In this document: piece by piece, positions 6,654 to 57,105 of the stretch
Layout of the letters: each line of letters begins with the position of its first letter
How positions within the stretch are numbered: position 1 is the stretch's first letter
Assembly (NCBI GenBank): GCA_028288965.1
Contig: JAQGHD010000019.1
Location: 25,202 to 89,201 of the forward strand
Direction of reading: 5' to 3'
Origin: Candidatus Saccharimonadota bacterium
GTDB lineage: Bacteria > Patescibacteriota > Saccharimonadia > Saccharimonadales > JAQGHD01
DNA: 64,000 nt
Notes under the pieces: generated by a model
What the model was told of the DNA's origin: nothing
The model's database searches: none
What the model saw: the letters and a program-made list of their open reading frames with translations, nothing else
Position numbers and translations under genes: made by a program

Positions 6654-6795
6654 AGAGTAGATCCCTTAGCAGCCACAGCCAATACAACGACCTTCAAGCC
6701 TGATTATGATTAAGGTTTTCCAATGAAAATGAGCTAGCAATAAGAAGCTCGCTGACTATGATTCTCTATCCTGGGGCATGTCTAAGAGATCCTAG

Positions 6796-7296
6796 TTACT
6801 CATCAATTTCAGAACTATAGTCAATTGGGTGCAGCCCTGTAGCTCCACGCTGCATTTCCTTATAGAGTAATTCTCTGTCGTCATCTGTGGGTTGAGATAA
6901 ACCAAGCTTATCGTCTACTCTACTGGGAAACACTATCCTTGCCATTTCCCGGAATGAGCCAGATATTACCATATTGCGATAAATGTCTATACAGCCAATA
7001 TCATCGATATCCATTTTGAATGTTACCACTTCGATGCCGGTCTCGCCTGGATGATGGAGTAGCCTTAAGATAGTGGGCTTAAGGGTCAGCGGGGAAGTGC
7101 CATTGCGCAACCCTTGGTCAATCAAATGTGCTGCGCCACCTTCTTCTGTCTGCCACTGCGCATAAGCCGTTCCAAAGGTAAAACGACCGAGTCGTTTTCG
7201 TCGTCCCATCCAATGTGACTCAACAAGAGCTGCATCCCGATAGACACGCAGATGCTCTAAGTATTGATTGCCATGCAAGCTGAAAGGTAAACTCAT
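6796..7296 (-). CDS. Hypothetical protein (start probably MSLPF at 7296)
   Basis: AGGAG RBS before the ATG at 7296. Confidence 0.6.
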   Translation of the reverse strand: MSLPFSLHGNQYLEHLRVYRDAALVESHWMGRRKRLGRFTFGTAYAQWQTEEGGAAHLIDQGLRNGTSPLTLKPTILRLLHHPGETGIEVVTFKMDIDDIGCIDIYRNMVISGSFREMARIVFPSRVDDKLGLSQPTDDDRELLYKEMQRGATGLHPIDYSSEIDE

Positions 7297-7410
7297 TACA
7301 CTCCTAATGCCTCCAATATTTTCATGTAGACATAAAAGAAGCAAGCACAGGCACTATATGAGAAACCTAAGAATCAAGTGTAGTAGGTTTATATGCATGA
7401 AATTGATTAG

Positions 7411-8376
7411 TTAGGCTGCGCTAGACTTTAAGATCACATTAGGTTCTCCAGCTTCGATAATAGTAACTGGATCGCCGACCCTTACGAGGTACCTAAGTCC
7501 TGGGATAAATTTATGATTTAGACTTTGGGCAAAGAATGGTTCTGCTTTGCTAGAAGTATCTTCCCCGAGTGCCCAACCCATTCTTGATCGCAAAATTTTA
7601 GTAGCTAACCTTTGGGAGTCATCGCCAGTAGTTTGATTAAAGTTAGGTACTGGACAGCGAGCCAGAGCTTTAATGACGAAGACTGGTATACTGCCGAGCT
7701 CAGCCGTGCGAATTGTATCTTCGCCAAATGCTCCTAGGGCCGAGCCTTTTATATCAACATTGGCCCGGAAGTTAATTAAAGGAACTGTTCCTCGTGGCAA
7801 TCCAGTTAGGTCATGAAGATAATTCAAAGAAGCTTGGCTTGCTAGGGAAACCGGTCGCCCATCTGCACCGGCTGCCCGATTTACAGCACCATCTCTTTGA
7901 TACTTTTGGGGCAACACTCTGGAGCGATTAGGGTCAGCTCGCCATAGCTTTACTGATCGACTAATTAAACTCGAAAAGAAATTGCTAGCTTCTGCTCCTT
8001 CAGCTAAGACTGGTAAATCAGGGCCAAAAATTCGAATGTTTGCTTGTTTAGTCTCTGGCTCTTCAAAGGCTATGTCAACAGCTCCATGACCAGGCGCACT
8101 TATAGCTAAGTGATCCGATTGAATGTCGATCGCAACTGTAGCCAACATACGATCTTCCCGGTACTTACGGGCTTGGCTTTCATCCCAACCGCGTTGTGAA
8201 ACAAATAAGTTGTCAGGATTGGCCACTACCCAGCCCCTATCCGCAATTTCACCGTACTTTAGGCCTGTGGAACCGGCTTCTAGTTCAACTATAGTTTTGC
8301 CATGTGCGGTTGCTTCTTGACATGACTTTATAGGATACAAATGCACCGCCTGAACATAATCTATACTTTCGTTCAT
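7411..8376 (-). CDS. MOSC-domain protein (YcbX-like)
   Basis: LYPIKSC, DRGW, FRANV, RCPVPN. Confidence 0.9.
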   Translation of the reverse strand: MNESIDYVQAVHLYPIKSCQEATAHGKTIVELEAGSTGLKYGEIADRGWVVANPDNLFVSQRGWDESQARKYREDRMLATVAIDIQSDHLAISAPGHGAVDIAFEEPETKQANIRIFGPDLPVLAEGAEASNFFSSLISRSVKLWRADPNRSRVLPQKYQRDGAVNRAAGADGRPVSLASQASLNYLHDLTGLPRGTVPLINFRANVDIKGSALGAFGEDTIRTAELGSIPVFVIKALARCPVPNFNQTTGDDSQRLATKILRSRMGWALGEDTSSKAEPFFAQSLNHKFIPGLRYLVRVGDPVTIIEAGEPNVILKSSAA

Positions 8377-8487
8377 GAGTAGAGATTACCCGTGTGGCGG
8401 CAAGTTTTGCAAGTTTAAGCACTTCACTTAAGTGCTTTTTATTTACGACCACTGTATGATGTTGGTAATTAAACGGAAAACAGGTAC

Positions 8488-8754
8488 ATGAAAGCACGGC
8501 AAAAACCTATCCCATCAAATGGCGGCAAGCTCCAACTTATTGGCTTTGTGCTTATGGCTCTGAGTCTTTTTGGAATTGTTCCCTTTGTGATTAACCTTGT
8601 GCTTAATGTACTTTTAAGCAATCCACCTGAGAACACAACTGGTTTAGCCATAGTAAACATAGGTACTCTTTTGAGTGTTTTGATCGGCTTAATAGCCGGT
8701 CTGTGTTTGGCGCTTATTGGAACCCGAAGAAAAGCAAACTATGCCAAACGGTGA
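8488..8754 (+). CDS. Small 2-TM membrane protein
   Basis: Two hydrophobic helices, basic C-terminus. Confidence 0.6.
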   Translation: MKARQKPIPSNGGKLQLIGFVLMALSLFGIVPFVINLVLNVLLSNPPENTTGLAIVNIGTLLSVLIGLIAGLCLALIGTRRKANYAKR

Positions 8755-8859
8755 AAATAACTGGTTTCTAAAAAGGAGCCCTTGTTACTATAGACAGATA
8801 ATTCACAGACTCAATATTACGAATCGTGTGAAATATCATTGTAATTAAAAGGATATGCA

Positions 8860-9174
8860 ATGGACTTACAACAAAACCCAGAAAGTAACCGAGCAATAGA
8901 TATGACCATAGAAAGTCTGGAAGAAAATTTGGCATTGCATCGAGCTGCTTTTCCGGAACACGTCACGGCTATAAGGCTGCTCATCAGCCACCGAATGCTA
9001 AAAAAGTTACCACCGCTCTCAATGGATGTTGATGAGTATCCAAAAACGGCAACCTTGTCTAGATTTCAAGTAGCCTATTTAGGCAAACGTCTGGTGGGCA
9101 ATGCCATAGACGCCAAAGGCAAAGATTCCCTCAGCGCTCAGTTATCGATGGAGATTGAACAGGCGGGCTATTAA
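8860..9174 (+). CDS. Hypothetical protein
   Basis: AAAGGA RBS, 104-aa ORF. Confidence 0.6.
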   Translation: MDLQQNPESNRAIDMTIESLEENLALHRAAFPEHVTAIRLLISHRMLKKLPPLSMDVDEYPKTATLSRFQVAYLGKRLVGNAIDAKGKDSLSAQLSMEIEQAGY

Positions 9175-9226
9175 CGGTTATGTTTGCACGCTAGACTTTT
9201 AAAACGCTACTGTTAAAATTGAAAGC

Positions 9227-9535
9227 ATGACACATGAAGGCTTTGAGCAACCTCCTGATGCCGAAATTGCCGAAGCATTTAGTGGTGCAGCTTTTCTGGC
9301 AGAGCACGGCCTGGTAGATATAGCCGATGATATGATTGAGGCGCATGGCGGCCGCTTTACAGTGGCTGAAGCTATTGAGGGCTGCCGGCCTTTAGCTGAC
9401 ATGGTTGTCAGCCTGTCTCGTGACCTTAAGGATGTGCCTGGACATATGGGGATTATTAAAAACGCTATTCAATCAGCTGGGGGATCAACAGCTGAACGGC
9501 CAGTGCCGGAAGCAGCTAAAAAAAAATTGAAGTAG
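9227..9535 (+). CDS. Hypothetical protein, possibly N-terminal part of a frameshift fusion with 9553..10671
   Basis: Ends in an A9 run (9518-9526) two codons before the stop. Confidence 0.7.
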   Translation: MTHEGFEQPPDAEIAEAFSGAAFLAEHGLVDIADDMIEAHGGRFTVAEAIEGCRPLADMVVSLSRDLKDVPGHMGIIKNAIQSAGGSTAERPVPEAAKKKLK

Positions 9536-9552
9536 CAGCCGAAAAGCAAAAA

Positions 9553-10671
9553 GTGCCGAATACGCTTACCCAAAAACTCGCCAAGAAACAATCAGAACCA
9601 GACAGTCATACATACGAAGAACCAATTTTTAAAACGGCGGCACAGCCTAAACTGTCGCAAGACGTACTGGTTGAGACCCGCCAAGCAGAACAGGACCGTG
9701 AGGTCATTGAATACGACAGTGTACAACTGGTTGAGCCAGGCGTAGATATCCTCATCGAACTCAACCAACAAGCACTTGGTAGGGAGGCTGCAGAAGTAGT
9801 TAGTCAGCCTGTTGATTTAGCGAATGAGTTATCGCTCGAGCTGTCCCAGCCAAAGATAATGCCCCAGGCGCTACTCTCTGAAAATGAGTCTGTCGCTACC
9901 TTTGCCGAAATCCAAGTTCCAGAACCGTTGGTAGCCGAACTCAGTGAGCAAATTGCAGCGCTCATCCATAATCCAGATAACTGGCTGGCTGCCGAGCTAC
10001 CGGTTAAGCCGCTAGTTGATCAAACAATTGAGGATGTCTTTACTCCTGGGAAAATTGAAGAACCTGCTACAGAGTTTGAGACTTTCGATTCTGAGGCATT
10101 TTTGCTGGATCTGCAGGAACTTTTTGCCACCAGTAATGTTGGGCTGGAAGACAATCAACAAGAAGAATTAAGGGTTGAACTTGGAGAGGTTGGCATTGAC
10201 CAAGGAAAAGACGCTACATTTATAGATGGTTTAACCGAATTTGTGAAAACCCTCGAACCTCAAAAGGCCGAGCCTGCCGAAGCCTTACTAAACTCAGCCA
10301 TAGCTAAAATAGATCAGCTTCTGGAAATGGCGGACCAAGCAGCAGAAGGCGTTGCCGACACGCTGGAAAGTCAGCCAGAGTACGCAGAAGAACTTATGGA
10401 AATTTGTTTACAGCTGCTGGAATACTTGAGAATTGAAGGTATCGAGTTAAACGCCAACAAGCTATTGGTGACCCTAGTAAACAGCCAATATGCTAAACAG
10501 CATCTGTTACAAGCAAATGTTTTTAAAATTTCCGAATGGCAAGAACTTGGCACGCACGAACAAAAACATGATTCTCACTACGCAAGGAATTTGGGTACTA
10601 TTTGGCAAAGTGGCCAATCGCGGCAGACTATACTAGGCCAATTAGCCATCACTTTTACGGCTGCAGCATAG
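9553..10671 (+). CDS. Acidic hypothetical protein, -1 frame continuation of 9227..9535
   Basis: Glu-rich 372-aa ORF, no RBS, frame open back through the A9 run. Confidence 0.7.
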   Translation: MPNTLTQKLAKKQSEPDSHTYEEPIFKTAAQPKLSQDVLVETRQAEQDREVIEYDSVQLVEPGVDILIELNQQALGREAAEVVSQPVDLANELSLELSQPKIMPQALLSENESVATFAEIQVPEPLVAELSEQIAALIHNPDNWLAAELPVKPLVDQTIEDVFTPGKIEEPATEFETFDSEAFLLDLQELFATSNVGLEDNQQEELRVELGEVGIDQGKDATFIDGLTEFVKTLEPQKAEPAEALLNSAIAKIDQLLEMADQAAEGVADTLESQPEYAEELMEICLQLLEYLRIEGIELNANKLLVTLVNSQYAKQHLLQANVFKISEWQELGTHEQKHDSHYARNLGTIWQSGQSRQTILGQLAITFTAAA

Positions 10672-10911
10672 TTAAGTCCCGGTGTAGCTCTTTTAGATTT
10701 TCATAAAGTGCAGGTAATAAACAAGTGTGCCAACAAAGCCCAAAAACCACACCCCGCCGGCTCCACCATGTTGACTGACATTTCGCTTATTGATTAGCAT
10801 TAGATGGCTAGGCGTGAAATGAGTGACTTTGAGTCATATTACAAAGCGCTATTGAGCTAGAGCTTTCCTATTCCCCCGGGAGTATAATTGTAAGAGGCGA
10901 AGGGATGGCTA

Positions 10912-11679
10912 GTGGAGCAGGCTCAATTGCAAATAAGTCGGTGGAGCTGGCTGCGTATTCTGTTGGGCGGCGCGGTGCTGTTTGTGCTACTGGAACGGGC
11001 CTTGCTGGCCACCAGCGACATACTGTATCTACCCTCAATCTTACTTATCGGTGCTTTCACCGTACCGGTAGCTTTTATCGCGCTCCTATATTCAAGGGCG
11101 AAGGTGCCGGACGTACCATGGAGTACTTTAGGCTGGTGCTTTTTGTGGGGAGGTGTAGTGGGCACGGTCTTGGCTGGCCGATTGGAATATGAAACCTTAA
11201 AACACCTGGGAACTTTGCCAACCATTGCTATAGGCGTCAGCGAGGAGCTGGCCAAGATTGTTGTCCCGCTGTATCTGTTATGGCGTTGGCGTTACAAAAG
11301 TGTTTTTGACGGGCTTATTATTGGGGCAGCGACGGGAGCTGGTTTTGCAGCGCTGGAAAGTATGGGGTACGGCCTGGTAGCTCTGATTGCCTCTGGAGGG
11401 AATATCAACGCTGCCGTTGAGACCTTATTGTTTCGCGGTCTGATGGCCCCGGCGGCCCACATTGCCTGGACCAGTTTGCTGTGCGGTGCTTTATGGTATG
11501 CCAAGAGCCATTATGGGTTCAAAGCTCGCCGGCAACTTACGAATACGCTGGTGGGCGTTATACTGCTGCATGCCATCTGGGATAGTGTCACTTCGACGGC
11601 AGTGCTTATTGCATTGGGCTCGGTAAGCCTATTGTGGCTGTTGCTTCGTGTCCGGCAGGCTGAACGCCAGGGTTTATAG
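10912..11679 (+). CDS. prsW: PrsW-family intramembrane metalloprotease
   Basis: EELAK, GAGFAALES, AHIAWT, LHAIWD motifs. Confidence 0.9.
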   Translation: MEQAQLQISRWSWLRILLGGAVLFVLLERALLATSDILYLPSILLIGAFTVPVAFIALLYSRAKVPDVPWSTLGWCFLWGGVVGTVLAGRLEYETLKHLGTLPTIAIGVSEELAKIVVPLYLLWRWRYKSVFDGLIIGAATGAGFAALESMGYGLVALIASGGNINAAVETLLFRGLMAPAAHIAWTSLLCGALWYAKSHYGFKARRQLTNTLVGVILLHAIWDSVTSTAVLIALGSVSLLWLLLRVRQAERQGL

Positions 11680-11756
11680 TTGTATAGGCAATAAACTAGG
11701 GGTACAGCTGCGATGACCTTCACGATGGCTGGCTAATCGCTTATACTAATAGGCAT

Positions 11757-12467
11757 ATGAAGCTCAAACTCTCGGCTCTTGTTGGCTTAATACTCACCGG
11801 CGTATTTGTATTGAGCAGTACCGCTCTGGCTCAAGGTATATACACGGCTGGATCGACCGGTGTTGATATATCATGGCCAAATTGTCGGGCCAAGGTGCCA
11901 ACCAGCGCCAAGTTTGGCATTGTGGGCGTAACCAACGGGCTGGGCTACTCCACTAGTCCTTGCCTAGTTAGTGAGGCAGCGCATTTTTCTAACCTAAGTT
12001 TTTATGTAAATACCGGCTGGAACAGCAGTTCTACGCACATTAACCCTACCAGCCCGCGGCTGTGTGCCGCCGCCGATAATAATTGTTTGGCCTACAATTA
12101 CGGCTATAACGCCGGACTTTATGCTTATAATGCGGCGTCTAGTGCCGGGCTGCACAGCACTACTTGGTGGCTCGACGTAGAATCGAATAATACCTGGTCC
12201 ACTGATGCCTTGCAGAATCAGAATAGCCTACTTGGTGAGCATGATGCATTGCTTGCCAGCGGCGTAGCAATCGTTGGGGCTTACAGCACCACGGCTATGT
12301 GGAACAGTATTACCGGCAGCTGGTTGAACAACTGGCCATCATGGGGTGCGACTACCTGGAAGACCGCTAACCAAGCCAAAACCTACTGCACCGGCCACCA
12401 GTTTACCGGCGGAACCACCTGGTTAATCCAATACCAGGGCCAGCTCGACCAAGACGTGGCTTGTTAA
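11757..12467 (+). CDS. Secreted glycoside hydrolase-like (GH25/DUF1906-type TIM barrel) protein
   Basis: Signal peptide, GVDISWPNC, WWLDVE, GAYS, QY..DQD. Confidence 0.7.
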   Translation: MKLKLSALVGLILTGVFVLSSTALAQGIYTAGSTGVDISWPNCRAKVPTSAKFGIVGVTNGLGYSTSPCLVSEAAHFSNLSFYVNTGWNSSSTHINPTSPRLCAAADNNCLAYNYGYNAGLYAYNAASSAGLHSTTWWLDVESNNTWSTDALQNQNSLLGEHDALLASGVAIVGAYSTTAMWNSITGSWLNNWPSWGATTWKTANQAKTYCTGHQFTGGTTWLIQYQGQLDQDVAC

Positions 12468-12477
12468 GAATTTGAGA

Positions 12478-15228
12478 TTACGAACGTGAGGTTTGTTTTC
12501 GGGCGCGGCTGGGCGCCGTTCGGCGCGAAGTTCGTGGCTTAGCCGGCGCTGCCGTTTTGAAGACAATGCCCTTACCAGCGTCATAGCTGACAGTCACGTG
12601 GCTACCCTCGCTGATGCTGCCGCGCAGTATCTCTTTGGCCAGTTTGTTTTCTATCTCGCTTTTAATTTGCCGGCGTAATTCGCGGGCGCCGAGTTCTGGC
12701 TGGTAGCCAACCGCTGCCAAATGTTCAATCACTGGCGTATCAAAATTAAGCTCAATAGCTTGCCCGCGCGCCATGCGCTTGACCCGCTCTAGTTGTAGCC
12801 CGACAATCTGCTTGATTTGCTCACGGCTTAAAGCTTCAAAAATAATGATTTCATCTATCCGGTTCAAAAACTCCGGGCGGAAAGAATTGCGCAGTTGCTC
12901 CAGCAGCGCTGCTTTGAGTTGGTCGTACGTCTTGCGCTCAGCTTTTTTGGCAGTGAGGTTTTCTTGGATAAGTGACGCGCCCATGTTTGACGTGGCAATA
13001 ATAATGGTGTTGGTAAAGTCTACTACTCGGCCTTTGCCGTCGGTTAAACGGCCGTCATCAAAAACTTGCAGCAAAATATTGTGGACATCGGGATGGGCTT
13101 TTTCGATTTCATCCAGCAGCAGCACGCTGTAAGGTTTGCGCCGGACGCGTTCGGTCAGCTGGCCGCCTTCTTCGTAACCAACATAGCCGGGCGGGGCACC
13201 GATCAGGCGGGCCACGCTGTGGCGCTCCATGTATTCGCTCATGTCTATCCGGATCATGGCGTCTTCGTCACCAAAAACGACCCAGGCCAGGGCTTTGGTG
13301 AGCTCGGTTTTGCCGACGCCGGTTGGCCCCAAAAACATGAAGGTGGCGATGGGGCGGTTGCCCTCGCTCAGGCCGGCCCGGCTCAAACGAATGGCATCGG
13401 CGACGGCTTCCACCGCTTCTGCTTGGCCAATGACTCGCTCGTGCAGGCGCTCTTCCAGCTTGAGTAATTTGTTTCTTTCTTCTTCGGTGAGTTCACTGAC
13501 TGGAATGCCGGTGATGCTAGAAACCACTTGGGCAATATGCTCTACCAGCACTTCCTGCGACGTGACGCCACGGTGGGCATGCCACTTGTTCTCCAGTCCG
13601 TCTCGCTGCTTGGTAAGTTTCTTGAGTTCCTTTTCTAGTTTGTTGGCTTCCTCCATACGTTTATGGTTGACAGCATACTCGCGCTCACGCTTGGCCTGCT
13701 GCAGTTTGTTGTTGAGGTCGGCAATATCTTGAGAGTACGTATCGGCACCGATCCGCACCCGCGAAGCGGCTTGGTCAATGAGGTCGATGGCTTTATCTGG
13801 CAAAAAGCGGTTGGCAATGTAGCGATCACTTAGTTCGGCGGCGGCCACGATGGCTGGCTCGGTTATTTTGACTTTGTGGTGGGCTTCGTACTTATCGCGC
13901 AGCCCGCGCAAGATTTCAATGGTTTGTTCCACCGTTGGTTCCGGGACAATCACCGGCTGAAAGCGCCGCTCCAGAGCCGCATCTTTTTCGATATATTTCT
14001 GATATTCGTTGAGCGTGGTAGCGCCGATAAGGTGCAGTTCACCGCGCGCTAGCGCCGGCTTCATGACGTTGGCCACGTCTATGCCGCCCTCGCCGCCGCC
14101 TTGGCCGGCTCCCACCACGGTGTGCAGCTCATCTATAAAAATGATCAATTCATCTTGGTGCGCGGTTATTTCATCCAGCACGGTTTTGATCCGCTCTTCA
14201 AACTCACCCCTATATTTGCTGCCGGCCACCATGGCTGTCAGGCTGAGTTCAACCACCCGTTTGTCTTGCAGGACTTGGGGCACGTGGCTGTGATAAATGC
14301 GCTGGGCTAAGCCCTCTACAATGGCTGTTTTACCAACACCTGGCTCACCAATCAGGACCGGATTGTTTTTGGTACGGCGGGCCAGGATTTCGATGGTGGT
14401 TTCAATTTCTTTGGCCCGGCCAATCACCGGATCCAGCTTGCCCTGTCTGGCTAGCTCCGACAAATCCCTAGAGTATTTGTCTAGTTGCGGCGTGGTGGAT
14501 TGACCCTCCACTCGGCCTTCTTCGGCCCCTTTGCCAACCACTTTGACAATCTTTTGACGCAGACTTTCCGTAGTGAGGCCATAGCGGCGCAACAACTCGC
14601 CGGCCATGCCCTCATCTTCTTGTAACAGTCCGAGCAGCAGGTGTTCTGGGCCGACGTAGCTGTGGCCAAGTTCGCGCGAGTCACGAAAAGCGTTTTCTAG
14701 GACCTGCTTGACGCGCGGCGCCACAGTAACCTCTACAGTGTCTTCACTTTTTGGAATCTGCTCCTGCTTGGGGGCATTGGTCTCGATATAGCCTTTGACG
14801 TCGCTACTCTTGAGCTTAAACTGCTTGAGTATTTCTTGGACAATTTCACTGTCGGCCAGGGCGTAGAGCAGGTGTTCGGTATCGACTTCGCGCCGGCCAA
14901 ACTTGACGGCGGTTTCGGCTGCTTGTTGAATAATTTCTTTGGTGTGCTCAGAGATGTACTCTTCTATATTGGTGGCTTCGCGATCCCTTGGCAGGGGTGA
15001 GCCAAGTCGTGACGCAAAACTGGGGAAATCCTCGCCAAAATTGTCACCAAGACTGTCGCCAACTCCAGAAAACAAATTCTCGAATGGTGAGTTTTGAGAT
15101 TGCCGGCGCAGCAGTTGCTGATAATGCTCATCGCACAACTCCAGGGTCATTTCCTTGCCATCTTGGCGCACCCGCACCGTGTGTGCGGCTGGTTTGCCGT
15201 CGTTCATGTCACAGACACCATCGGCCAT
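12478..15228 (-). CDS. clpG: ClpG/ClpK-type stand-alone AAA+ disaggregase (ClpB/C family)
   Basis: Two AAA+ modules ([16 protein letters not shown]), Clp_N repeats, extra N-terminal C..(x)[15 protein letters not shown] segment like the ClpG N1 domain. Confidence 0.8.
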
Positions 15229-15388
15229 TGTCTACATCCCTTCTTTACGCGATCCGTTAAGACTACTCTTTTGCATTCCATCTGTCTGCGAAGATTTAGA
15301 CAGTTAAGAAACAATGGCGTCGGTGGTCAGAAATACACTTTGATTATCTGTGTTACCATAACCGTAGGCTTCCAATAATAAAAATACT

Positions 15389-16489
15389 ATGAAACAAAAA
15401 GTCTCCGCACGTGCTCGGCAGGCCCATACCCGGCAAAAAAAGATTGTTCGGGCCAATCGTCCCTACCATAAAAGGCTGCTACTAAGTCCTATTAGCGTCT
15501 TTTTCTTGCTTTGCGTCGGCGTTTTACTGATTGGTGTGACCTATCAGGCTCTAGCCGCGGATGTTACGGTGGTGGCCCAAAAGCCGGCGCCATTGCCCAC
15601 GTCCCCTGCGGTTATCGAACTGTTAACGCCGCAAAATCAAGCTGGCGATAGCCAAGCACCGCAAGCTGTAGCCAGCTCCCCAAAAACCTATCAGGTAGAC
15701 CGACAGATCATTACGCTCAGTGGTAGCTGTCCCAAAGACAGTTACCTAAAGTTTTATAGAAACGATTTATTTGCCGGTGTGACTATGTGCATTGGTGACC
15801 CGGTATTTAGTATTGAAATTAGCCTGGTGGATGGTCTGAATAAGATCGAGGCACATGTCTTTAGCTTGACAGACGGCGAAGGTCCGCTTAGCTTACCGTT
15901 TTACATAAACTACACGCGCCCCAGCCTGGCGGCGCCTGCTGCTAAGGGACCCACCAAAAGCCCAACTATTGTAGTGCCGCTGGCCGGTTCATTTCTGCTG
16001 ACCAGTAACTATCGATTTAGAGGCGTTTTTGTGAACCAGGCATTCAACTGGGATGTCGACATTCATGGCGGGACGCCGCCCTATAAGTTCGACGTCGATT
16101 GGGGAGATAGGAGTAGTAGCAATTCCACCCACCCATCTGTCTCGAACCTAGTACTTGCGCATACCTATTCCAAACCAGGCGGTTATAATGGCAACTATGC
16201 CATTAAAGTCCACGCGACAGATAGCAAAGCGGTATTGGCCAGTATGCAATTGATGGCCGTGGTAAATAATAAACCAAAGCCAAATGTTTTACTCGACACA
16301 ACCTGTGCCTCACCGGCCATTGGTTTTGGCTGTGCCTCGTGGTTGCCGAGCGTCCGGCATTGGCTTTGGGCGGTTTGGCCAACGTACAGCGTCGTGCTGC
16401 TTATGGCACTCAGTTTTTGGCTTGGCGAGCGCCAAGAAATTCGTCAGCTGCTGCTGCCAAAGCGTCGGATCCAGCACCGTCGGCCATGA
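15389..16489 (+). CDS. Membrane-anchored Ig/PKD-domain surface protein
   Basis: N-terminal TM, GGTPPY..VDWGD..HTYSKPG.Y (PKD), C-terminal TM. Confidence 0.8.
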   Translation: MKQKVSARARQAHTRQKKIVRANRPYHKRLLLSPISVFFLLCVGVLLIGVTYQALAADVTVVAQKPAPLPTSPAVIELLTPQNQAGDSQAPQAVASSPKTYQVDRQIITLSGSCPKDSYLKFYRNDLFAGVTMCIGDPVFSIEISLVDGLNKIEAHVFSLTDGEGPLSLPFYINYTRPSLAAPAAKGPTKSPTIVVPLAGSFLLTSNYRFRGVFVNQAFNWDVDIHGGTPPYKFDVDWGDRSSSNSTHPSVSNLVLAHTYSKPGGYNGNYAIKVHATDSKAVLASMQLMAVVNNKPKPNVLLDTTCASPAIGFGCASWLPSVRHWLWAVWPTYSVVLLMALSFWLGERQEIRQLLLPKRRIQHRRP

Positions 16490-16522
16490 TAAATATCACT
16501 TCGATGCAGTATAATAACGTTT

Positions 16523-17596
16523 ATGCGTTGGCCAATTCTTGGAGGGTTGCTTTTGTTCGCGGCTCTGCCGGCGACGGCTAATTATCAGTTAAACTCATAT
16601 GGATTCGGCAATGGGGGAGTGGCCAATGCGTCGACTTCCAACTACGCGCTAGAGGGCATTAGCGGTGAGATTGGCGGCCAAACCGCCAGCACTGCCACCT
16701 ACCAAGTCAAACCGGGTTTTATTGAAACTCAGCAGTCCAATGTTCCTAAAATCGCGACGTTCGATAACGGCAGCGGCCGCTACTATAACAAGCTGCACTT
16801 TGTCCTAGACCAGCAGAGCAATCCATCTGACGCCACATATGCCTTGCAGATCAGCACTACCAGCGATTTTTCCAGCGGCAATAACTTTGTCAAAAGCGAC
16901 CTAACCATTGGCGCCACGCTCAATACCACCGATTACCAAACGTACGCGGCTTGGGGTGGAGCCAGCGGCTCAAACATTATTGGCCTGGTGCCCAGCACCA
17001 CCTACTACTTGCGGGCCAAAGTGACCCAGGTAAATTCCTTTAGCGGCGTTTCAACCGAAAGCGGCTACGGTCCGGCCAGCTCGGTGGCCACAGTGGGGCC
17101 GAGTCTGTCGTTTGATATTGATGTGTCGGCCATTGACACCTCCACCAGCCCGCCCTTTACCACCAATTTTGGCAACATACTGCCTAGTACCATCACCGAT
17201 AGCCCGCAGAAGATTTGGTTTAGCTTTGATACCAATGCCGTCAGCGGCGGCAGTATTTATATATCGGGGGCCAGCGGCGGGCTTAGGAGCACCCTTCGCT
17301 CCTACACCATCAGTTCGCTCAGCGGCGATTTGTCATCATCGGCCGAAGGTTTTGGGGCCCAAAACTCGTCTGCAACCCAAACTTCTGGCGGGCCAATCGC
17401 CGCCGCTAGTCCTTATAATGTGTCTTCCCAGAACGTCGGGATTATAGACAGCACCGTACGGCCCATGTATTCGGCGACGGCACCGCTGGTAGCCGGGCGG
17501 GTGTCTTTTTTGCTTAAGGCCAAATCCAAAGCCTTAACTCCACAGGCTACGGACTATGCCGAAACGCTTACTACCATTGCCGCCGGGAGTTTTTAG
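16523..17596 (+). CDS. Secreted FN3-like plus WxL-like C-terminal domain protein
   Basis: Signal peptide, GLVPSTTYYLRA, C-terminal TPQATDYAETLTTIAAGSF. Confidence 0.6.
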   Translation: MRWPILGGLLLFAALPATANYQLNSYGFGNGGVANASTSNYALEGISGEIGGQTASTATYQVKPGFIETQQSNVPKIATFDNGSGRYYNKLHFVLDQQSNPSDATYALQISTTSDFSSGNNFVKSDLTIGATLNTTDYQTYAAWGGASGSNIIGLVPSTTYYLRAKVTQVNSFSGVSTESGYGPASSVATVGPSLSFDIDVSAIDTSTSPPFTTNFGNILPSTITDSPQKIWFSFDTNAVSGGSIYISGASGGLRSTLRSYTISSLSGDLSSSAEGFGAQNSSATQTSGGPIAAASPYNVSSQNVGIIDSTVRPMYSATAPLVAGRVSFLLKAKSKALTPQATDYAETLTTIAAGSF

Positions 17597-40354: not shown

Positions 40355-40551
40355 TGTTTGGGTGAGGCGACTATACCATGGCAGCAAGTAGACTACGGGC
40401 TTACTATGCCCACATTTTTTATAAGTTGTGCCGAAAATCACAAAGCTTATGCCAATTAGTTCACAGCTATTTTGCTTATGCTGTGGAAAGATTAAGACGG
40501 CTTATGCTTGCTATTCGGAGAAAAGAGGATAAAGATGTGGGGGAGAAAAGC

Positions 40552-40986
40552 ATGAATTCAATCAGTGCGTATGACGTCGCTAACGTCTTTGCTAAGCTGA
40601 CAGATATTGATTCTGGAGAGGTTTTAACGAACCTAAAAATCCAGAAGCTTGTTTACTACGCCCAAGGTTTTCACCTTGCAATGTTTGATAAGCCTCTTTT
40701 TAACGACCCTATTGTTGCGTGGGAGCATGGCCCTGTTGTTGAAGATTTGTACCACAAGCTAAAGGAGCATAAGTCATCACCAGTAATGATAGCTGGCGCA
40801 ATCAACAAAGACATCTCCACTGAACAAATTGAACTCCTTGTAGAGGTCTACGATGTTTACGGTCAGTTTTCAGCATGGAAACTCAGAGACATGACCCATA
40901 ACGAAACTCCTTGGGCAACAACACCAAAAGGTTACGTGATTACTCACGCTAAACTCAAAACATACTTCAAGAATCAGCTCCAGTAA
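40552..40986 (+). CDS. Panacea (DUF4065/SocA-like) antitoxin
   Basis: LTNLKIQKLVYYAQ, AWEHGPVV, SAWKLRDMTH.E.PW. Confidence 0.9.
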   Translation: MNSISAYDVANVFAKLTDIDSGEVLTNLKIQKLVYYAQGFHLAMFDKPLFNDPIVAWEHGPVVEDLYHKLKEHKSSPVMIAGAINKDISTEQIELLVEVYDVYGQFSAWKLRDMTHNETPWATTPKGYVITHAKLKTYFKNQLQ

Positions 40987-41420
40987 TGGATAGACGGCAT
41001 CCGCCTAAGCCGAAGAAAATGAAGGGCGTTTCGTTCAATCAGTCTCAAGTTAGAGTAGCTGAGTCCGCTAGTGCGCATAAGTCTGACCACCCAATATTTT
41101 GTTTGAGATATTTAGTAAATGGATACGACCTAGAGAAATGTGATAAAGAGCAAGCACACTTCTTCGTGAAGAAACTAGCAAATATGGCTCAATTATCATG
41201 GACAGCATTATTGCTTGGTGACCATAAAAGTGGGCTTGGTTTTGAGCCATTACCCAAGGACCAAATAAAAGCCCCATTGCCTGCAATTGTGACCAAGGAT
41301 ATAACTAGTATGCAAGTTATAAGATTTAAGCGTGACTACAGAATTATAGGTTTCAGGAGTGACGATACCTATAGAATTACACATATAGAGTTAGACAGGA
41401 GTGCTTATGACCACGGTTGA
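40986..41420 (+). CDS. Putative RelE-like toxin paired with the Panacea antitoxin
   Basis: Overlapping stop/start (TAATG), basic protein, RF...YRIIGFR....Y.H. Confidence 0.6.
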   Translation: MDRRHPPKPKKMKGVSFNQSQVRVAESASAHKSDHPIFCLRYLVNGYDLEKCDKEQAHFFVKKLANMAQLSWTALLLGDHKSGLGFEPLPKDQIKAPLPAIVTKDITSMQVIRFKRDYRIIGFRSDDTYRITHIELDRSAYDHG

Positions 41421-41462: not shown

Positions 41463-41711
41463 CTAATCAAACGTGCTTCCCAGCCCGTCCCAAAAGAACA
41501 AGGTAAATCGGTACAGTCCTGAAGTTATAATAAAAACAAAACTGGTTAAGGTAAGACTCTGTAGGTACTTCGGGCTAACGGCGTGATGAGTGCCATCTAT
41601 TGACCGCTTTAGTTGGCTCCAAAAGCCCTCGATGGTGTTGGTGTGGACGTTGCCACGTATATATTCAAGCGTTGAATGATTAACCGTTGTGTGGTTGCAG
41701 CCCGCTTGCAT
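41463..41711 (-). pseudogene. IS1595-family transposase C-terminal remnant
   Basis: HTTVNHS..EY.RGNVHTNTIEGFWSQLKRSIDGTHHAVSPKYLQS, truncated and frameshifted. Confidence 0.85.
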
Positions 41712-41723
41712 TCAGAAAAATGA

Positions 41724-41776
41724 TTCGCTTTCGCTCTTTTGAGCTCATCAGTATGAATACACATTCATAAAACGAA
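41724..41776 (-). ncRNA. Type III hammerhead ribozyme (copy A)
   Basis: Minus strand: UUCGU-U-U^ UAUGAAU-GUGU-AUUCAUA CUGAUGA GCUC-AAAA-GAGC GAAA GCGAA. Predicted cut between 41770 and 41769. Confidence 0.85.
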
Positions 41777-41900
41777 AACGACAAATAGACAGAGATAAAG
41801 ATACACAAAGCAGCCAGGGAGGTGGCAAGGCTTTGATATATCAATATCACTGCCTATTTGCCATTCTCGCTTTACCGAGAACTTTTCTCGACCGTCAGTG

Positions 41901-42566
41901 TCAGTTGGCGTCCTGCACAATAAACCCAAACGTCAGGTCATCTTGGTCGCGGAGGTAAGGGAACAGACCCACGTAGGAGGTGCTCAAGCGCCCGGCCGCG
42001 ATCTTGCTGATGACGCTTTCCAGGTGCTGTTTTGCCCGATCTACGTCTGTAACGCGCGTGTCGATGTCCAAGGCTGCTGCCCGGAGTTCGAGCACGTAGC
42101 CCTTGACACCGTCTAGGTCTGTCAATTCGATGGCTACTTGCCTGGTTGCGTCAGCGAAAGCCTGCTGGTCCATGATCTGTTTGGTGATGTGGCTCATTGG
42201 CGTGAACCTTGCAAGGTTGCTGTTGAAGGTGATGATCACCCGGCGGAATGGCCATTCTGTCTGCGGTGTTGCGAGAACACGCTTGTCTCCACGCAAGGGG
42301 AACAAGTCCAACAGATTCTGGGTCGCCCAATCGATGGTAACCTGAACCCACTCTGCAACGGCAGCTGAATTCGTGACGTTGTCACGATACTCAACCGACA
42401 TGTCAAAACGGTTGATGTTGCAGCCAAAGACGCCGTCATGTTGCATAATGCGACCCCTAAGGGGCAGCACTGCATCGCGGTGATCCTCTGAGTTAAAGGT
42501 GCCTGTCTCTTCGTTGATTCCGGTTATAGCCGTATTGAATTCGAACGTGAGAGTCTGATTGGTCAT
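41901..42566 (-). CDS. Hypothetical protein with two similar ~100-aa alpha/beta repeats
   Basis: AGGAG RBS, internal repeat (FEFNT../ITFNS.., HDGV/LDGV, LFPLRG/LFPYLR). Confidence 0.75.
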   Translation of the reverse strand: MTNQTLTFEFNTAITGINEETGTFNSEDHRDAVLPLRGRIMQHDGVFGCNINRFDMSVEYRDNVTNSAAVAEWVQVTIDWATQNLLDLFPLRGDKRVLATPQTEWPFRRVIITFNSNLARFTPMSHITKQIMDQQAFADATRQVAIELTDLDGVKGYVLELRAAALDIDTRVTDVDRAKQHLESVISKIAAGRLSTSYVGLFPYLRDQDDLTFGFIVQDAN

Positions 42567-42686
42567 GTTGGCTCCTGCTTCAACTCACCTGACTGTTTGT
42601 CCCAACTGACGTTGGCGCGTATCCATAATGAACACACAAAGTGAGATACCAAGACGCATGGGTGTCCTAGTAACTCACTTTGTGTT

Positions 42687-42773
42687 TCTGTCTATTTGTC
42701 AAATAACACCTTTGGAACCCATTGGCTCAACAAAAGCAAACATTATATTACCATATAATCATAAAAAAGTCCA
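42687..42773 (-). promoter_or_regulatory. Promoter, conserved 5' hairpin, boxA-like motif and leader strand (unit A)
   Basis: TGGACT(42768-73)-17-TAATAT, 44-nt block 42696-42739 repeated at 43497-43540, TGTTATTTGACAA, 42687-42700 is a perfect inverted repeat of 41780-41793. Confidence 0.75.
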
Positions 42774-42792
42774 CAATCTGTTTGGACGGTTA

Positions 42793-42843
42793 CCGCTTTC
42801 GCTCTTTTGAGCTCATCAGTATGAATACACATTCATAAAGCAG
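42793..42843 (-). ncRNA. Type III hammerhead ribozyme (copy B)
   Basis: Minus strand: CUGC-U-U^ UAUGAAU-GUGU-AUUCAUA CUGAUGA GCUC-AAAA-GAGC GAAA GCGG. Predicted cut between 42838 and 42837. Stem III differs from copy A but still pairs. Confidence 0.85.
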
Positions 42844-42946
42844 AAATGACGACCAGACAGGAGTTTAGGGTAGAGGGATGACCACAAGGGTCAAACGTCT
42901 AGTTTCCTAAACTGCTCCCTGATGGTCATTTTTGCGCGCGATAACG

Positions 42947-43378
42947 CTATCCGTTATCGCACAAGCGTGGGGTCTGTTGAGACGCCGGCAGCTTGTTGAA
43001 ACTGAGGATGTTCTTGAACGACGAGAAGAGCGGCACACGCCAACCCTTGATTTGCACGCTGTACGTCGTCTCGGGCTGGATCTTGCCGTAGGCGTCGGCA
43101 GTGTTAAACCGTGTCTTGCCGAACAGCGAGTCCTTCATGACAAACGTGCCACCACTGGTGTAGATGCGGTATTCGCCGCCGTTTTGGGTAGCTACGCGCT
43201 CCTTGCTGCACACCGTCAGCACGCGAGTGCTGATGTGGTTGTAGTTGTGGAAGATGGCAGAGATGCCGACTACGAGGGCCAAAACGACCGCCGCAATGGC
43301 AACTGCACAACCCGCGCCCTGGAAATTCTCTCGACGACGAGCCCGATACTGGTTCGCATCACTAGTTCTCATGGACAT
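42947..43378 (-). CDS. Membrane-anchored DUF1523-like protein (phage-associated type)
   Basis: TM helix then TV.SKER..YRIYT..GTF..KDS..RFN.AD.YG......Y.....GWRVP.FS.F.NI, AAAGGAAG RBS. Confidence 0.65.
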   Translation of the reverse strand: MSMRTSDANQYRARRRENFQGAGCAVAIAAVVLALVVGISAIFHNYNHISTRVLTVCSKERVATQNGGEYRIYTSGGTFVMKDSLFGKTRFNTADAYGKIQPETTYSVQIKGWRVPLFSSFKNILSFNKLPASQQTPRLCDNG

Positions 43379-43489
43379 AGGGTCTTCCTTTCTCCTCTCC
43401 TCGGCATACAGCCTAAGGTGTTTATCCTAAACACACAAGGTGAGGAACAAAAGTACAATAATTATACGTTTGGTGCTCACCTTGTGCTT

Positions 43490-43574
43490 TGTCTGGTTGT
43501 CAAATAACACCTTTGGAACCGATTGGCTCAACAAAAGCAATGTAGATAATAACATAAAAATGCGCAAAAGTCCA
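43490..43574 (-). promoter_or_regulatory. Promoter, conserved 5' hairpin, boxA-like motif and leader strand (unit B)
   Basis: TGGACT(43569-74)-17-TATTAT, same 44-nt block, 43490-43501 pairs 11/12 with 42848-42859. Confidence 0.75.
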
Positions 43575-54077: not shown

Positions 54078-54590
54078 CATCCTAACCTTAGGTGTGGAAG
54101 AAGTTCCGTTACTAGAGAAATCAGCGTTAGACAAGCAGAACTCCGTGTAAACGAAAATCTGCTGCTTTTACGTCTGGTTTCACCAGGAATCTAAGGATAT
54201 AGGGGTGCCTTAACAAGTTGAATCATTACAGAACAGTTATTATCTGTTAACGGATATAACCTTGGACAGACCATCTAATACTAGTACTCCTGTGATAACA
54301 GGGGTAGTTTATGCGTGCTAGGCACGCATGGCTAGTGTTAAGGCGGTCTGTCCACGGTTGAGGCATTAATTGCCTCCCGAAAGGCAGATAAGCAACTACA
54401 AAACCTATGCAAATCAAAAGATATTTCCGAACCATGTGAAATGAAAGACATCTTTGCCGATAAATTTTGTCGGCTTAGATGTCTTTCATTTCACAATGGA
54501 AATCCTGTGCTTGCCTGTATGTGGAGCAAAGGAGAAAGGCAATCTGCAATATCCCTCAACGCATACCAGCGCAATAGGAAGGAATCGGAA
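54078..54590 (+). ncRNA. ~510-nt highly structured 5' leader with boxA-like motif and leader strand
   Basis: Stems 54263-72/54345-54 and 54435-53/54477-95 (19 bp perfect), ATGCGTGC-TAG-GCACGCAT, GTGCCTTAACAA at 54205-16, 54215-35 complementary to 57085-105. Confidence 0.65.
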
Positions 54591-55217
54591 ATGCCCATCA
54601 ATGTCACTGACATTGTCACCGCCGCAGCCGACGTCGAGAAGGACGAGGACAAGGCCGCCCAGAAGCGCATCGCCGCCATCATCAATAGGATGGTTCGCGT
54701 GTACAACTCGGGTGGCAATACCACGGTCTTCGATTCGGTCGAGCTGCTCCTCGGCATCAAGCCGGGCGGCGTCAAGGAGCTCCTCACCCAATTGGGCATT
54801 ACCCTGCCCAACGAGGACGAACCCGACAACACACCGCGTGCGTTAAACGCACCCGGAGCCTCACGCAGGAACATCCACAACTGGGTGGACGTGTACGAGA
54901 ACCGAGAGGGCACTGTCAAGTCGACCGATGTCGACAAGGTCCTGGCCGGCGACATGGTGAAGATCAACGAGTACAACCTCGCACCGATCTTCGCTAATGA
55001 CGACCCGAGCCAGATCGTCGGCTACTACAAGCGACCCGTGCCCGCTCCGGCGCCTGCCCCGACCAACGACACCGTCGTGGTTGCCGGCAAGCGTGGGAAG
55101 CCCGACACGGTCATCAACAGAGTTGACTACCAAGCGAACTCGGCTGCATACCGCGTGCTCGAGCACCACCCCGATGGCACGCCGAAGCGAGTCGCCAAGT
55201 TGCCCCGAGTTCTCTAG
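54591..55217 (+). CDS. Hypothetical protein (start MPINV)
   Basis: GGAAGGAA RBS. Strong C-ending codon bias begins at this ATG. Confidence 0.75.
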   Translation: MPINVTDIVTAAADVEKDEDKAAQKRIAAIINRMVRVYNSGGNTTVFDSVELLLGIKPGGVKELLTQLGITLPNEDEPDNTPRALNAPGASRRNIHNWVDVYENREGTVKSTDVDKVLAGDMVKINEYNLAPIFANDDPSQIVGYYKRPVPAPAPAPTNDTVVVAGKRGKPDTVINRVDYQANSAAYRVLEHHPDGTPKRVAKLPRVL

Positions 55218-55357
55218 GAACCAAGACGAAAGCCCGGAAAGCTAACTAAATTTCCGAGGGGGCGTTCCGAACGAGCGGACATGCTTTGGCATGAGAGAAT
55301 GTCATGTTCTCTACGTCCACGAAGTCGTACAGTTCACCTAAGACAGGAGGTGACCAG

Positions 55358-56731
55358 TTGGTCATCAAGTTACTACTGCTGATCATGGCCGCCGCATCCC
55401 TCGCGCTTGTGGTGGTTAGCTGGAAAAGAAAGGTGGCCATTGGTCGCCGCTACCACTACTTCAGGGCACTGCCGATGACTGCGGCCGCCGCTGTGGTGTT
55501 GGTAATCGCTGCCACACTTGCGTGGTCAAACACGCACGCGGACGGCCAGACGGTTACTACCACGACCACTACGTCGTCGACCACGGTTGGTCTCCCGACC
55601 AACGGCTCCATCCCCAAGGGCGGAGTCACCATCAAGGTCAGCGACGAGGTGATCAAGAAGATCACAGTCCGTACGGCATCGTTCGACTGCCCGACGCTGG
55701 TTACCAGCCACGGCGGAAGCACGATGGCCTCACTCAACGAGACGGTTGTTGTCCCCAGCGTGAACGTGTACAAGGATGTTTCGACCAGCCGCAAGGCCTC
55801 GGACAACCTCGACACGCCACTGCCGGGCAAGACGCCGACTCAGCAACGGGACTACCTGCGAGCCCGCATCTGCGAGAACGCCCTTTTGGGTGGCTCGTGG
55901 GCGAACATGCTCGCTGGGTTGAACTTCGACGGCATTTCGGTGCTGAAGCAAAACCCATGGTTGCGCCAGTTCGCTGACGTGTCCAAGGTGAACGATCGAG
56001 CGGAGTACTACTTTCCGTTCATCAACATCAAGTCCCCCGAAAAGACGCTGACCGATGCCCAGAAGGTCCTCGCCGTCCGGCGCAACATTGCCTGGCAGCA
56101 AGAGGCCGAGCTCATCGGGACGCTCATCGGGCAGTTCCAGATCGTTGGTGACCAAGCGCCTACAAGCGTGCGGAACTGGCATCTGGCAATGCACGGAAGT
56201 GAGGTCAAGGCCCACGCGTTCCCCGAAGTCGGGCTCAACCCCCTCCAGGAGAACCGTCCGGCGTTGGTAATTCGGTTGATTGACAAGGGCGCTTGCGCTC
56301 CTTGGCTCGCAATCGGTGCCAACCTGGAAGACAAGCGACCGGAAGTCTTCATGGAAGCTCCGAAGCTCGTCTGCCAACGGCCTAAGCCCAAGCCGCGTCC
56401 TGGTACGCCTGGTTCGACGAGCCCTCACCGGCCGCCGACACACGGAACGACCACGACCACCCGGCCGGGGACGACCACGACCACTCAGCCGACAACGTCG
56501 ACCACAGTGGTTTGTTCCTCCGGCAAATGCCAGCCACCAAACACAGTTGCACCACCCCCAATAACGGCAGCGCCGTCTACCACGACAACCACGTCACACG
56601 GCGCTGGACAAGGTGGTTCCGGTACTGGTGAGTCGACAAACACGACGACTCCGTCGCCGACGTCTGTACCTTCGGGCACGACGCCGACTTCTACCGCTAC
56701 CGGCGGGGATACTGGGGCTCCGCCTCCGTAA
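55358..56731 (+). CDS. Membrane-anchored extracellular protein with Pro/Thr-rich tail
   Basis: AGGAGG RBS before TTG 55358, two N-terminal TMs, low-complexity P/T C-terminus. Confidence 0.75.
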   Translation: MVIKLLLLIMAAASLALVVVSWKRKVAIGRRYHYFRALPMTAAAAVVLVIAATLAWSNTHADGQTVTTTTTTSSTTVGLPTNGSIPKGGVTIKVSDEVIKKITVRTASFDCPTLVTSHGGSTMASLNETVVVPSVNVYKDVSTSRKASDNLDTPLPGKTPTQQRDYLRARICENALLGGSWANMLAGLNFDGISVLKQNPWLRQFADVSKVNDRAEYYFPFINIKSPEKTLTDAQKVLAVRRNIAWQQEAELIGTLIGQFQIVGDQAPTSVRNWHLAMHGSEVKAHAFPEVGLNPLQENRPALVIRLIDKGACAPWLAIGANLEDKRPEVFMEAPKLVCQRPKPKPRPGTPGSTSPHRPPTHGTTTTTRPGTTTTTQPTTSTTVVCSSGKCQPPNTVAPPPITAAPSTTTTTSHGAGQGGSGTGESTNTTTPSPTSVPSGTTPTSTATGGDTGAPPP

Positions 56732-57105
56732 GCCGCTGTAGCGACGAGTTTGCGCCTATTGCGCAAAATAGACTGGTCTCTCGCCCATCCCTCTAAGTAC
56801 GTATGCCGCTCACCCGGTGTACTTAGCTGTCTAGTAAGGGAGAAACAAAATTTCGAGCATCCGCTCGAAATGCGAGTGAGGTTCCTGGGACGTCATGTTG
56901 ACGTGCATCCTTTGGATTCGTGAGAATTCATAAAAACCAGGTCGATTTGCATTGGTCATGATCGCACCCTCACGGGTTGCTTGAACATGGAGCTGTAGTT
57001 GCGCTCAAGCTGGGGCTGTTTGGTTCGAAATTTGATCTCCTTTTGGAGACCACCTTTCGATATCAAATAGCCCCGCTTTACCCATGTTTTGTAATGATTT
57101 AACTT
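56732..57105 (+). ncRNA. ~370-nt highly structured 3' trailer
   Basis: Hairpins TTTGCGC/GCGCAAA, CTAAGTAC/GTACTTAG, TTTCGAGC/GCTCGAAA, ACGTCA/TGACGT, GGGGCTGTTTG/CAAATAGCCCC, ending in the trailer strand 57085-105. Confidence 0.6.

Follow-up and report, generated by a model that had tools for sequence, protein, structure and literature searches.

Tandem hammerhead-ended transcription cassettes with unrelated cargo genes in a Candidatus Saccharimonadota genome and its relatives

We analyzed a 64,000-nucleotide (nt) stretch of a Candidatus Saccharimonadota genome (the window), which lies on contig C15 of its assembly (G000; 916 kb, 48% GC, 94% complete). On its minus strand the window carries two adjoining expression units, A and B, with near-identical RNA ends and unrelated open reading frames (ORFs) between them. 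An earlier note, made from the letters alone, had described this layout, and all of its coordinates held. The units lie head to tail, each begins with a promoter of the form TGGACT-17-TA(A/T)TAT, the 44-nt blocks at their 5′ ends (43540-43497 in B and 42739-42696 in A) differ only at one loop base, and their 3′ blocks, spaced 1068 nt apart, are 90% identical over 67 nt. Within each unit a leader arm is complementary to a trailer arm, at 14 of 14 positions in unit A, where a repeat finder recovered the pair, and at 11 of 12 in unit B. Positions of all features are collected in Table 1.

In both promoters a TG precedes the −10 element (extended −10), and by their spacing from the −10 the predicted transcription start sites are the first bases of the 44-nt blocks. 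Only the unit B promoter passed a consensus promoter scan, unit A lying below threshold, and the region held no excess of promoter-like sites (5 found versus 5.3 in shuffles). No terminator was called by a terminator scan at the end of either unit. The weak hairpin and T-run that overlap the unit A −35 element may form the end of the 3′ ribozyme fragment of unit B.

The 3′ blocks of both units have the core (CUGAnGA and GAAA), the three stems and the open stem III of a type III hammerhead ribozyme. The Rfam Hammerhead_3 model (RF00008) scored them at 29.8 and 23.7 bits and family relatives at up to 39.3 bits, all below its cut-off of 48.5; a tRNA was the sole match in the window at Rfam cut-offs. 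In an alignment of the family hammerheads, 12 of 16 base pairs vary on both sides and 97% of cells are paired, a level reached in none of 500 shuffles, with slid controls at 30-46%. C or A occupies position H17 in 67 of 83 relatives of one set and in 41 of 44 of another, and the window triplets, CUU in B and UUU in A, end in U, as in 16 of 83 and 3 of 44. Under the NUH rule, U is the slowest base at H17. In predicted folds of both units, stem II of the hammerhead, before cutting, can base-pair with the first 16 nt of the RNA, which could delay cleavage. A second ribozyme in the 5′ block (twister, pistol or hairpin) was rejected for lack of Rfam support, with no match to a 5′ ribozyme in the window units.

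We then looked for the same elements elsewhere, among relatives that were each sampled from a different genus and included no close strains. A DNA search across 41 genomes gave matches in seven genomes beyond G000. Using a search model built from 17 hammerheads, we found the ribozyme in 46 of 121 genomes of the order (a count that includes one unpublished genome, G032), often in tandem and in up to 12 copies per genome; G000 has nine. A second unpublished genome, G352, enters into none of the conclusions. A degenerate hammerhead pattern matched at least 123 stretches among genome contigs. The 80 taken for their titles came from Saccharibacteria or Saccharimonadia (51), other Patescibacteria (14), unnamed bacteria (7) and other phyla (8), and none of the 80 was titled as from Actinobacteria. 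By these titles the organism, one of the tiny parasitic bacteria, is probably an epibiont of the Saccharibacteria type. In viral contigs, exact 22- and 29-nt patterns had no matches, and the same hammerhead core stood at 41 loci (L175 to L215), mostly with a GUC triplet and about 30 nt 3′ of phage ORFs. These viral copies lack a shift in GC content at third codon positions (GC3; 6 of 21), and nearly all lack a leader-trailer helix (present in 1 of 41). Two viral loci, L201 and L212, also have repeated leader hairpins. An atlas search gave no informative match.

In the fullest members the 5′ half runs from promoter through hairpin H0, a boxA-like motif, arm P1, hairpin P2 and arm P3 to the Shine-Dalgarno sequence (SD), and the 3′ half from cargo through a long 3′ hairpin, P3′, P1′ and a tail of 8-12 nt to the hammerhead. 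A 279-nt empty unit (L007) keeps this whole frame around no ORF of 45 codons or more. G000 has two more units with the family leader, on contigs C30 and C4, the latter without a hammerhead. These comparisons of sequence confirm that the two window units are members of a widespread cassette family in the Saccharibacteria-type (Patescibacteria) order, and show that each unit is a self-contained transcription cassette with a conserved RNA frame around swapped cargo. The window layout is not a chance arrangement, because it recurs with covariation in other genomes. In the hammerhead-less C4 unit (L164, about 250-1100), the trailer is followed, in place of a ribozyme, by a structured stretch that looks loosely twister-like by eye. 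This stretch has no Rfam match and is possibly another ribozyme or a decayed one.

The leader-trailer helix, P1, was compared between units. Across 24 units the cognate arms pair at 11.25 of 12 positions, versus 8.74 with mismatched partners; this set was chosen partly by complementarity, and the weight is carried by a test on 13 units located from sequence only. For that test we ran a leader model on 45 other stretches, and all 13 of its matches were followed, about 400-1300 nt downstream on the same strand, by a hammerhead. Cognate pairing in these independently located units was 10.3 of 12, versus 8.6 for non-cognate arms, and none of 100,000 permutations was as high; as kin units are not independent, we take no probability value from this result. 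The P1 columns of the 13 units hold several pair types each, and the helix P1 covaries, as judged from these aligned arms. An initial duplex test, made globally, failed to discriminate (39 of 96 versus 52 of 96 for controls, the control being the best of four tails that were often homologous). Exact P1 matches of at least 10 nt were present in 14 of 44 hammerhead loci, of which at least one stretch repeats earlier units.

The trailer has a second partner, a local purine-rich and G-U-rich arm just past the stop codon, so that in unit B, for example, the trailer arm can pair with either the local arm or the leader. In equilibrium folding of full-length RNAs, P1 formed with a probability of at least 0.78 in 16 of 24 units, and 7 units, including A, favored the local hairpin; leader-trailer pairing was about 0 in unit A and 0.87 in unit B. 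The two folds lie within 5.5 kcal/mol of each other in 12 of 24 units (+4.7 in A, −5.5 in B and −1.2 in the empty unit). In 19 of 24 units the transcribed strand forms a stronger 3′ hairpin than the other strand. Two minimal units have an SD that doubles as the P1 arm and is thereby covered (0.89 and 0.61). The cargo ORFs fold no better than their synonymous shuffles (z −1.1 and +0.6). The earlier note had spoken of end-closed RNA, and of this the selected helix stands, as only one of two competing folds.

It had also suggested that the RNAs might be circularized, which the genomes do not bear out. RtcB is missing from G000 and was over cut-off in none of the 121 genomes, and the 5′ end of each unit is a predicted transcription start rather than a 5′-OH. 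A reverse transcriptase (RT) was likewise not found in G000. RT occurs in 24 of 121 genomes, including 7 of the 46 with hammerheads versus about 9 expected, which gives no link. What stands of the first reading is a modular cassette whose cargo can be exchanged, together with the conserved hammerhead and a covarying P1; its circularization does not.

The analogy that the note drew with ribosomal RNA (rRNA) operons fared well. The boxA-like motif, so labeled by resemblance, is conserved across the family, the covarying helix starts inside it and encloses the payload, and both nusB and rnc are present in G000, adjacent to each other. In three relatives the 16S leader itself consists of a hairpin, a boxA-like motif and a processing stem that starts in or beside the motif. 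Rho was found in none of 61 genomes (G000 and 60 others), which rules out antitermination against Rho as the role of boxA. Because Rho is missing, boxA would instead be a folding chaperone. In excerpts of the published rRNA operon model (PMC10250234), NusB on boxA retains the leader while the trailer has yet to emerge; this model needs no Rho, and the 16S leaders of these relatives fit it. The E. coli rrn leader, as presented there, shares with the cassettes the order of hairpin (boxB), boxA and helix arm (boxC), and its 5′ and 3′ flanks likewise pair around the payload. Unlike it, the cassettes enclose an ORF and not an rRNA, have a helix of 10-14 bp and not of over 17-30, and combine a ribozyme-made 3′ end and a competing local hairpin with the absence of Rho.

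Part of the leader is matched by RAGATH-10 (RF03147, cut-off 41.2 bits). The model covers family members from the 3′ arm of P2 to the SD at 32-33 bits, scores unit B at 18.8 bits and does not match unit A. It exceeds its cut-off in 1 of 101 genomes (G063, 50.9 bits), upstream of a hammerhead. The RAGATH-10 closing stem, in which a CCUCAUCU-like strand pairs with the SD region, is possible in unit B (43387-43449) at −14.6 kcal/mol, versus −18.3 for P2. This second, weaker partner of the P2 3′ arm near the SD is the pairing drawn in Rfam. RAGATH-10 differs from the cassettes in spanning only about 80 nt, in a model without promoter, boxA, P1, trailer or ribozyme.

The cargo genes are mostly orphans and stand out in codon use. 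They top the GC3 ranking of G000, with a GC3 of 0.69 versus 0.52 in 10 housekeeping genes and codon fractions of 0.78 versus 0.28 for TTC, 0.69 versus 0.28 for ATC and 0.02 versus 0.11 for TTA. At 41 hammerhead loci picked by the ribozyme alone, GC3 was 61 in the upstream ORF versus 43 in the flank and was higher in 35 (p = 4e-7), a gap inflated where flanks are AT-rich islands. The codon profile of 14 pooled cargo ORFs correlates at 0.90 with 19 genes from a single Gordonia phage and at 0.53 with G000. An effect of genome on cargo GC3 (p = 8e-9) is a hint only, as values were hand-picked and apparent wrong-frame ORFs dropped. SDs precede 158 of 523 genome ORFs versus most cargo, an uncontrolled comparison with hand-chosen cargo starts.

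Pfam matches were found for 13 of 60 cargo proteins and include SPFH, GT2, NUDIX, RNA polymerase alpha-CTD, PspA and TPM; the cassettes on contig C1 of G000 carry ThiF, JAB, phospholipase A2 and ParB-like genes. The cargo at L028:6716-7108 has an RNA polymerase alpha C-terminal domain and is a candidate transcription modulator. The unit A protein, with a tandem ferredoxin-like fold, has 87 relatives at up to 45% identity, none of them in 400 other genomes of the phylum. The unit B protein belongs to phrog_301 (secreted protein), with 33-41% identity to the 15 actinophage matches listed and a best match of 64% elsewhere. Protein searches of 151 genomes gave two unit B homologs, one complete in a hammerhead cassette (27% identical, GC3 82) and one cut by a contig end, and four loci with E1 homologs, of which one has a hammerhead and the other three have only long 3′ hairpins; GC3 is 79-85 in all four. 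Two homologs found by protein alone, one for unit B and one for E1, thus also end in hammerheads. The E1 homologs are 43-65% identical and share 23-40% of four-fold sites (saturated), at a GC3 of 71-85. Either foreign codons have been kept long-term or the genes have been captured repeatedly from an unsampled high-GC pool.

The surroundings of the window units hold further elements. Unit C is a weaker, hammerhead-less third unit (Table 1), and between it and unit A a Panacea/SocA-type antitoxin is followed by a 144-amino-acid (aa) partner without a Pfam match (40378-41420, plus strand). An IS1595/ISXO2 transposase remnant (41463-41711, minus strand) lies directly 3′ of the unit A hammerhead. 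Further hammerhead-less, GC3-rich islands lie in the window at about 54400-56900 (plus strand; G000:C15:79642-81932) and on contigs C14, C22, C23 and C1 (at 27473); they have their own promoter, a structured leader and a purine/pyrimidine 3′ hairpin, and one encodes TPM and PspA. Locus L023, on contig C1, carries at 6380-9500 (minus strand) a hammerhead-ended operon of a membrane protein, a JAB-like protein, ThiF/E1 and a ubiquitin-like protein, with homologs in G076 and three copies in G122. Three tandem units that end in a hammerhead variant with an enlarged stem I follow at 12520-17030 (plus strand); their cargo looks secreted, and two have a putative immunity gene. Between these, at 9520-12369, a gene like that of a type IV secretion system (T4SS) coupling protein stands amid five hammerhead cassettes, at this single locus. 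At L006, L013, L051 and L074, tRNA genes occur no farther than about 2 kb from the cassettes.

Table 1. Positions and supporting evidence for the features of units A, B and C in the window
Feature	Position	Strand	Basis or remark
Unit B promoter, sigma70-type, TGGACT-17-TATTAT, extended −10	43546-43574	−	TTGACA/TATAAT-like promoters at the same place in relatives
Unit B predicted 5′ end and hairpin H0 (boxB position)	43509-43540	−	−10 spacing, fold, family conservation
Unit B boxA-like motif, 3′ half opening the leader arm	43497-43510	−	Resemblance; nusB in genome
Unit B leader arm, helix P1	43490-43501	−	Pairing probability 0.87
Unit B leader hairpin P2	43434-43486	−	Inverted repeat
Unit B cargo, 143 aa, phrog_301 "secreted protein"/DUF1523-like, GC3 74%	42947-43378	−	SD 43391-43384
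Unit B 3′ hairpin (local arm 42931-42912, trailer arm 42859-42848)	42848-42931	−	Predicted fold
Unit B type III hammerhead, predicted cut after 42838 (CUU)	42794-42842	−	Rfam Hammerhead_3, covariation
Weak hairpin and T-run overlapping unit A −35	42763-42787	−	Seen in sequence; missed by terminator scan
Unit A promoter, TGGACT-17-TAATAT, extended −10	42745-42773	−	Sequence
Unit A 44-nt block: predicted 5′ end, H0, boxA-like motif (42709-42696)	42696-42739	−	Repeat, fold
Unit A leader arm, helix P1	42687-42700	−	Inverted repeat; outcompeted by local hairpin
Unit A leader hairpin P2	42634-42685	−	Inverted repeat, fold
Unit A cargo, 221 aa, two ferredoxin-like (HMA/ACT-type) domains, GC3 67%	41901-42566	−	SD 42578-42572
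Unit A 3′ hairpin (local arm 41868-41850, trailer arm 41793-41780)	41780-41868	−	Predicted fold
Unit A type III hammerhead, predicted cut after 41770 (UUU)	41726-41774	−	Rfam Hammerhead_3, covariation
Unit C, hammerhead-less, weaker third unit	~40354-39519	−	Leader model E 0.097, weak
Unit C promoter, H0, boxA-like motif and 3′ hairpin	H0 40318-40295; 3′ hairpin 39570-39519	−	Sequence
Unit C cargo, two GC3-rich ORFs	40245-39940; 39914-39594	−	

We propose that the hammerhead would set a fixed 3′ end with a 2′,3′-cyclic phosphate and so replace a terminator. Nus factors bound to boxA would keep the leader arm near the polymerase, as has been proposed for rRNA operons; the trailer would leave its local hairpin and the RNA would close into a P1-P2-P3 junction, with both ends shielded and, in some units, the SD covered. 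The closed ends may serve as a handling signal for a message meant for the ribosomes of a high-GC host. Cargo would be swapped at the DNA level between resident frames, because the units keep parts that an RNA copy would lose.

On purpose, the reading that we rank highest, while giving it somewhat less than an even chance, is that the cassettes make end-protected messenger RNAs (mRNAs) that would be translated in the attached host. Translation by host ribosomes would explain why cargo codons stay host-like. The persistence of foreign codons in saturated homologs, the absence of a close donor for either window cargo and the lack of the codon shift and of P1 in the viral copies count in its favor. 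More broadly, and a little more doubtfully, Patescibacteria might deliver mRNA effectors, with the frame marking or protecting transcripts for host ribosomes and the relaxase-less T4SS as a candidate route. The cargo might then be, at the same tentative level, host-codon-adapted genes for membrane remodeling, transcription, ubiquitin-like defense and secreted antagonists. According to excerpts of two reports, Patescibacteria T4SSs mostly lack a relaxase (PMC12102498) and are essential with no known role (PMC11665869). One member of the group takes in RNA from its host by way of tubular contacts and has a codon use that complements the host's, according to part of a preprint (bioRxiv 2026.06.21.733656).

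Several observations weigh against translation in the host. The RNA traffic in the accessible part of that preprint runs the opposite way, from host to parasite, so that it shows a conduit and not delivery (bioRxiv 2026.06.21.733656). The anti-SD of relatives is normal, so the parasite could translate cassette RNAs itself, and for the secreted phospholipase with its putative immunity gene, secretion by the parasite fits equally well. Cargo GC3 spans 37-91 and is under the flank at 6 of 41 loci, the 69% of G000 cargo is below the 83% of the phage comparator, and repeated capture from an unsampled high-GC gene pool might account for the codons. The frame also has its gaps: P1 is missing from many hammerhead loci, three of the four E1 homolog loci have no hammerhead, and the leader model had no matches in three rRNA leaders of relatives. 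Unit A favors the local hairpin, pairing of the SD with the 3′ end is predicted for no more than about 5 of the 22 units that have a called start, neither A nor B among them, and both window ribozymes, with weak NUU sites, may be slow.

Translation in the host has a close rival, ranked behind it as a serious possibility that still falls short of probable, in which the cassettes are a platform for expression at home. They would make stable, end-defined monocistronic mRNAs translated by the parasite itself, with cargo recaptured from high-GC hosts or their phages by way of natural competence, followed by recombination into the conserved ends. Protected ends may be of use because PNPase would break down imported host RNA. 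The native promoter, the strong SD and the intact anti-SD of relatives suit this view, as do the frequency of the unit B family in actinophages, the modest cargo GC3 of some genomes and the divergence of units A and B exactly from boxA to ribozyme. Excerpts of published work describe Saccharibacteria as naturally competent (PMC11665869), and PNPase-based RNA catabolism is proposed for the phylum in part of a preprint (bioRxiv 2026.06.21.733656). Against expression at home, foreign codons outlast synonymous saturation in cassette-resident homologs, unit A has no close donor among about 15 billion proteins, Actinobacteria are absent from the 80 titled hammerhead loci, and a cargo-less frame has been retained (L007).

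Two further explanations rank well below these. In one, which we consider improbable, the shared blocks are mainly recombination handles like the PeSL elements of phages, joined to a phage-derived ribozyme terminator, and pairing and codon bias are by-products. The same hammerhead core 3′ of genes at 41 viral loci and the weak terminator-like hairpin on the unit A −35 element would fit, and promoter-terminator motifs are described as driving gene swapping in T4-like phages in the abstract of PMC4122927. Against this, long-range covariation of P1 in independently located units and a 3′ hairpin biased toward the plus strand (19 of 24) both need selection at the RNA level. The other, the least likely of all, is a selfish circular or retro-mobile RNA of retrozyme-like or retron-like kind, its hammerhead end ligated or reverse transcribed and the element spreading through RNA. 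The terminal arms and inner hairpin resemble the a1/a2 arms of retrons, and in tandem arrays read-through from B into A could yield a 1068-nt hammerhead-to-hammerhead monomer. Many units are solitary, however, and the units retain the promoter and the downstream half of the ribozyme, both of which would be lost in an RNA copy. Neither RT nor RtcB is encoded in the genome, and the counts across the order given above also speak against it. For prophage hammerheads, excerpts of Perreault et al. (PMC3088659) report that no circles were detected.

Parts of the cassettes have counterparts among known systems. Engineered Tornado circular RNAs, retrozymes and retron noncoding RNAs have a ribozyme-made end by a closing stem, or terminal arms around a cargo. 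The cassettes differ from these in that no 5′ ribozyme, RtcB or linked RT was found. Prophage type III hammerheads (RF00008; PMC3088659), as excerpted, likewise lie directly 3′ of a non-conserved gene and were proposed to trim single-gene mRNAs; unlike them, the cassettes are chromosomal and dispersed, with their own promoter, boxA-like leader, P1, 3′ hairpin and codon-shifted cargo. PeSL cassettes of T4-like phages (PMC4122927) also place short conserved regulatory blocks around unrelated, swappable ORFs; according to the abstract, they are composite promoter-terminators with no described ribozyme, end pairing or codon shift, whereas the window cassettes lie on a bacterial chromosome with no terminator called at the ends of A or B.

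The earlier note knew of no description of such a system. This holds for the combination of parts, of which we found no report; the leader in part matches RAGATH-10, and prophage gene-flanking hammerheads are in print (PMC3088659, in excerpt). We found no description of the cassette system in full-text literature, a search beyond which lay most subscription papers and the original RAGATH-10 text, which may bear on novelty; RAGATH-10 is not described in the main text of PMC5737381. The cassettes are a real system whose parts are known singly and whose combination was not found in print.

On a conservative reading, the cassettes would assign bacterial hammerheads a definite task in more than a third of the genomes sampled from the order, and would reuse rRNA-style boxA and end pairing on mRNA in cells that lack Rho. 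The frame would also single out the special genes in these minimal genomes. Saccharibacteria can now be manipulated genetically. If translation in the host is true, the cassettes would amount to mRNA-based manipulation of one bacterium by another, would offer a candidate substrate for the essential and unexplained T4SS of Patescibacteria, and may provide a ready frame for RNA delivery into Actinobacteria.

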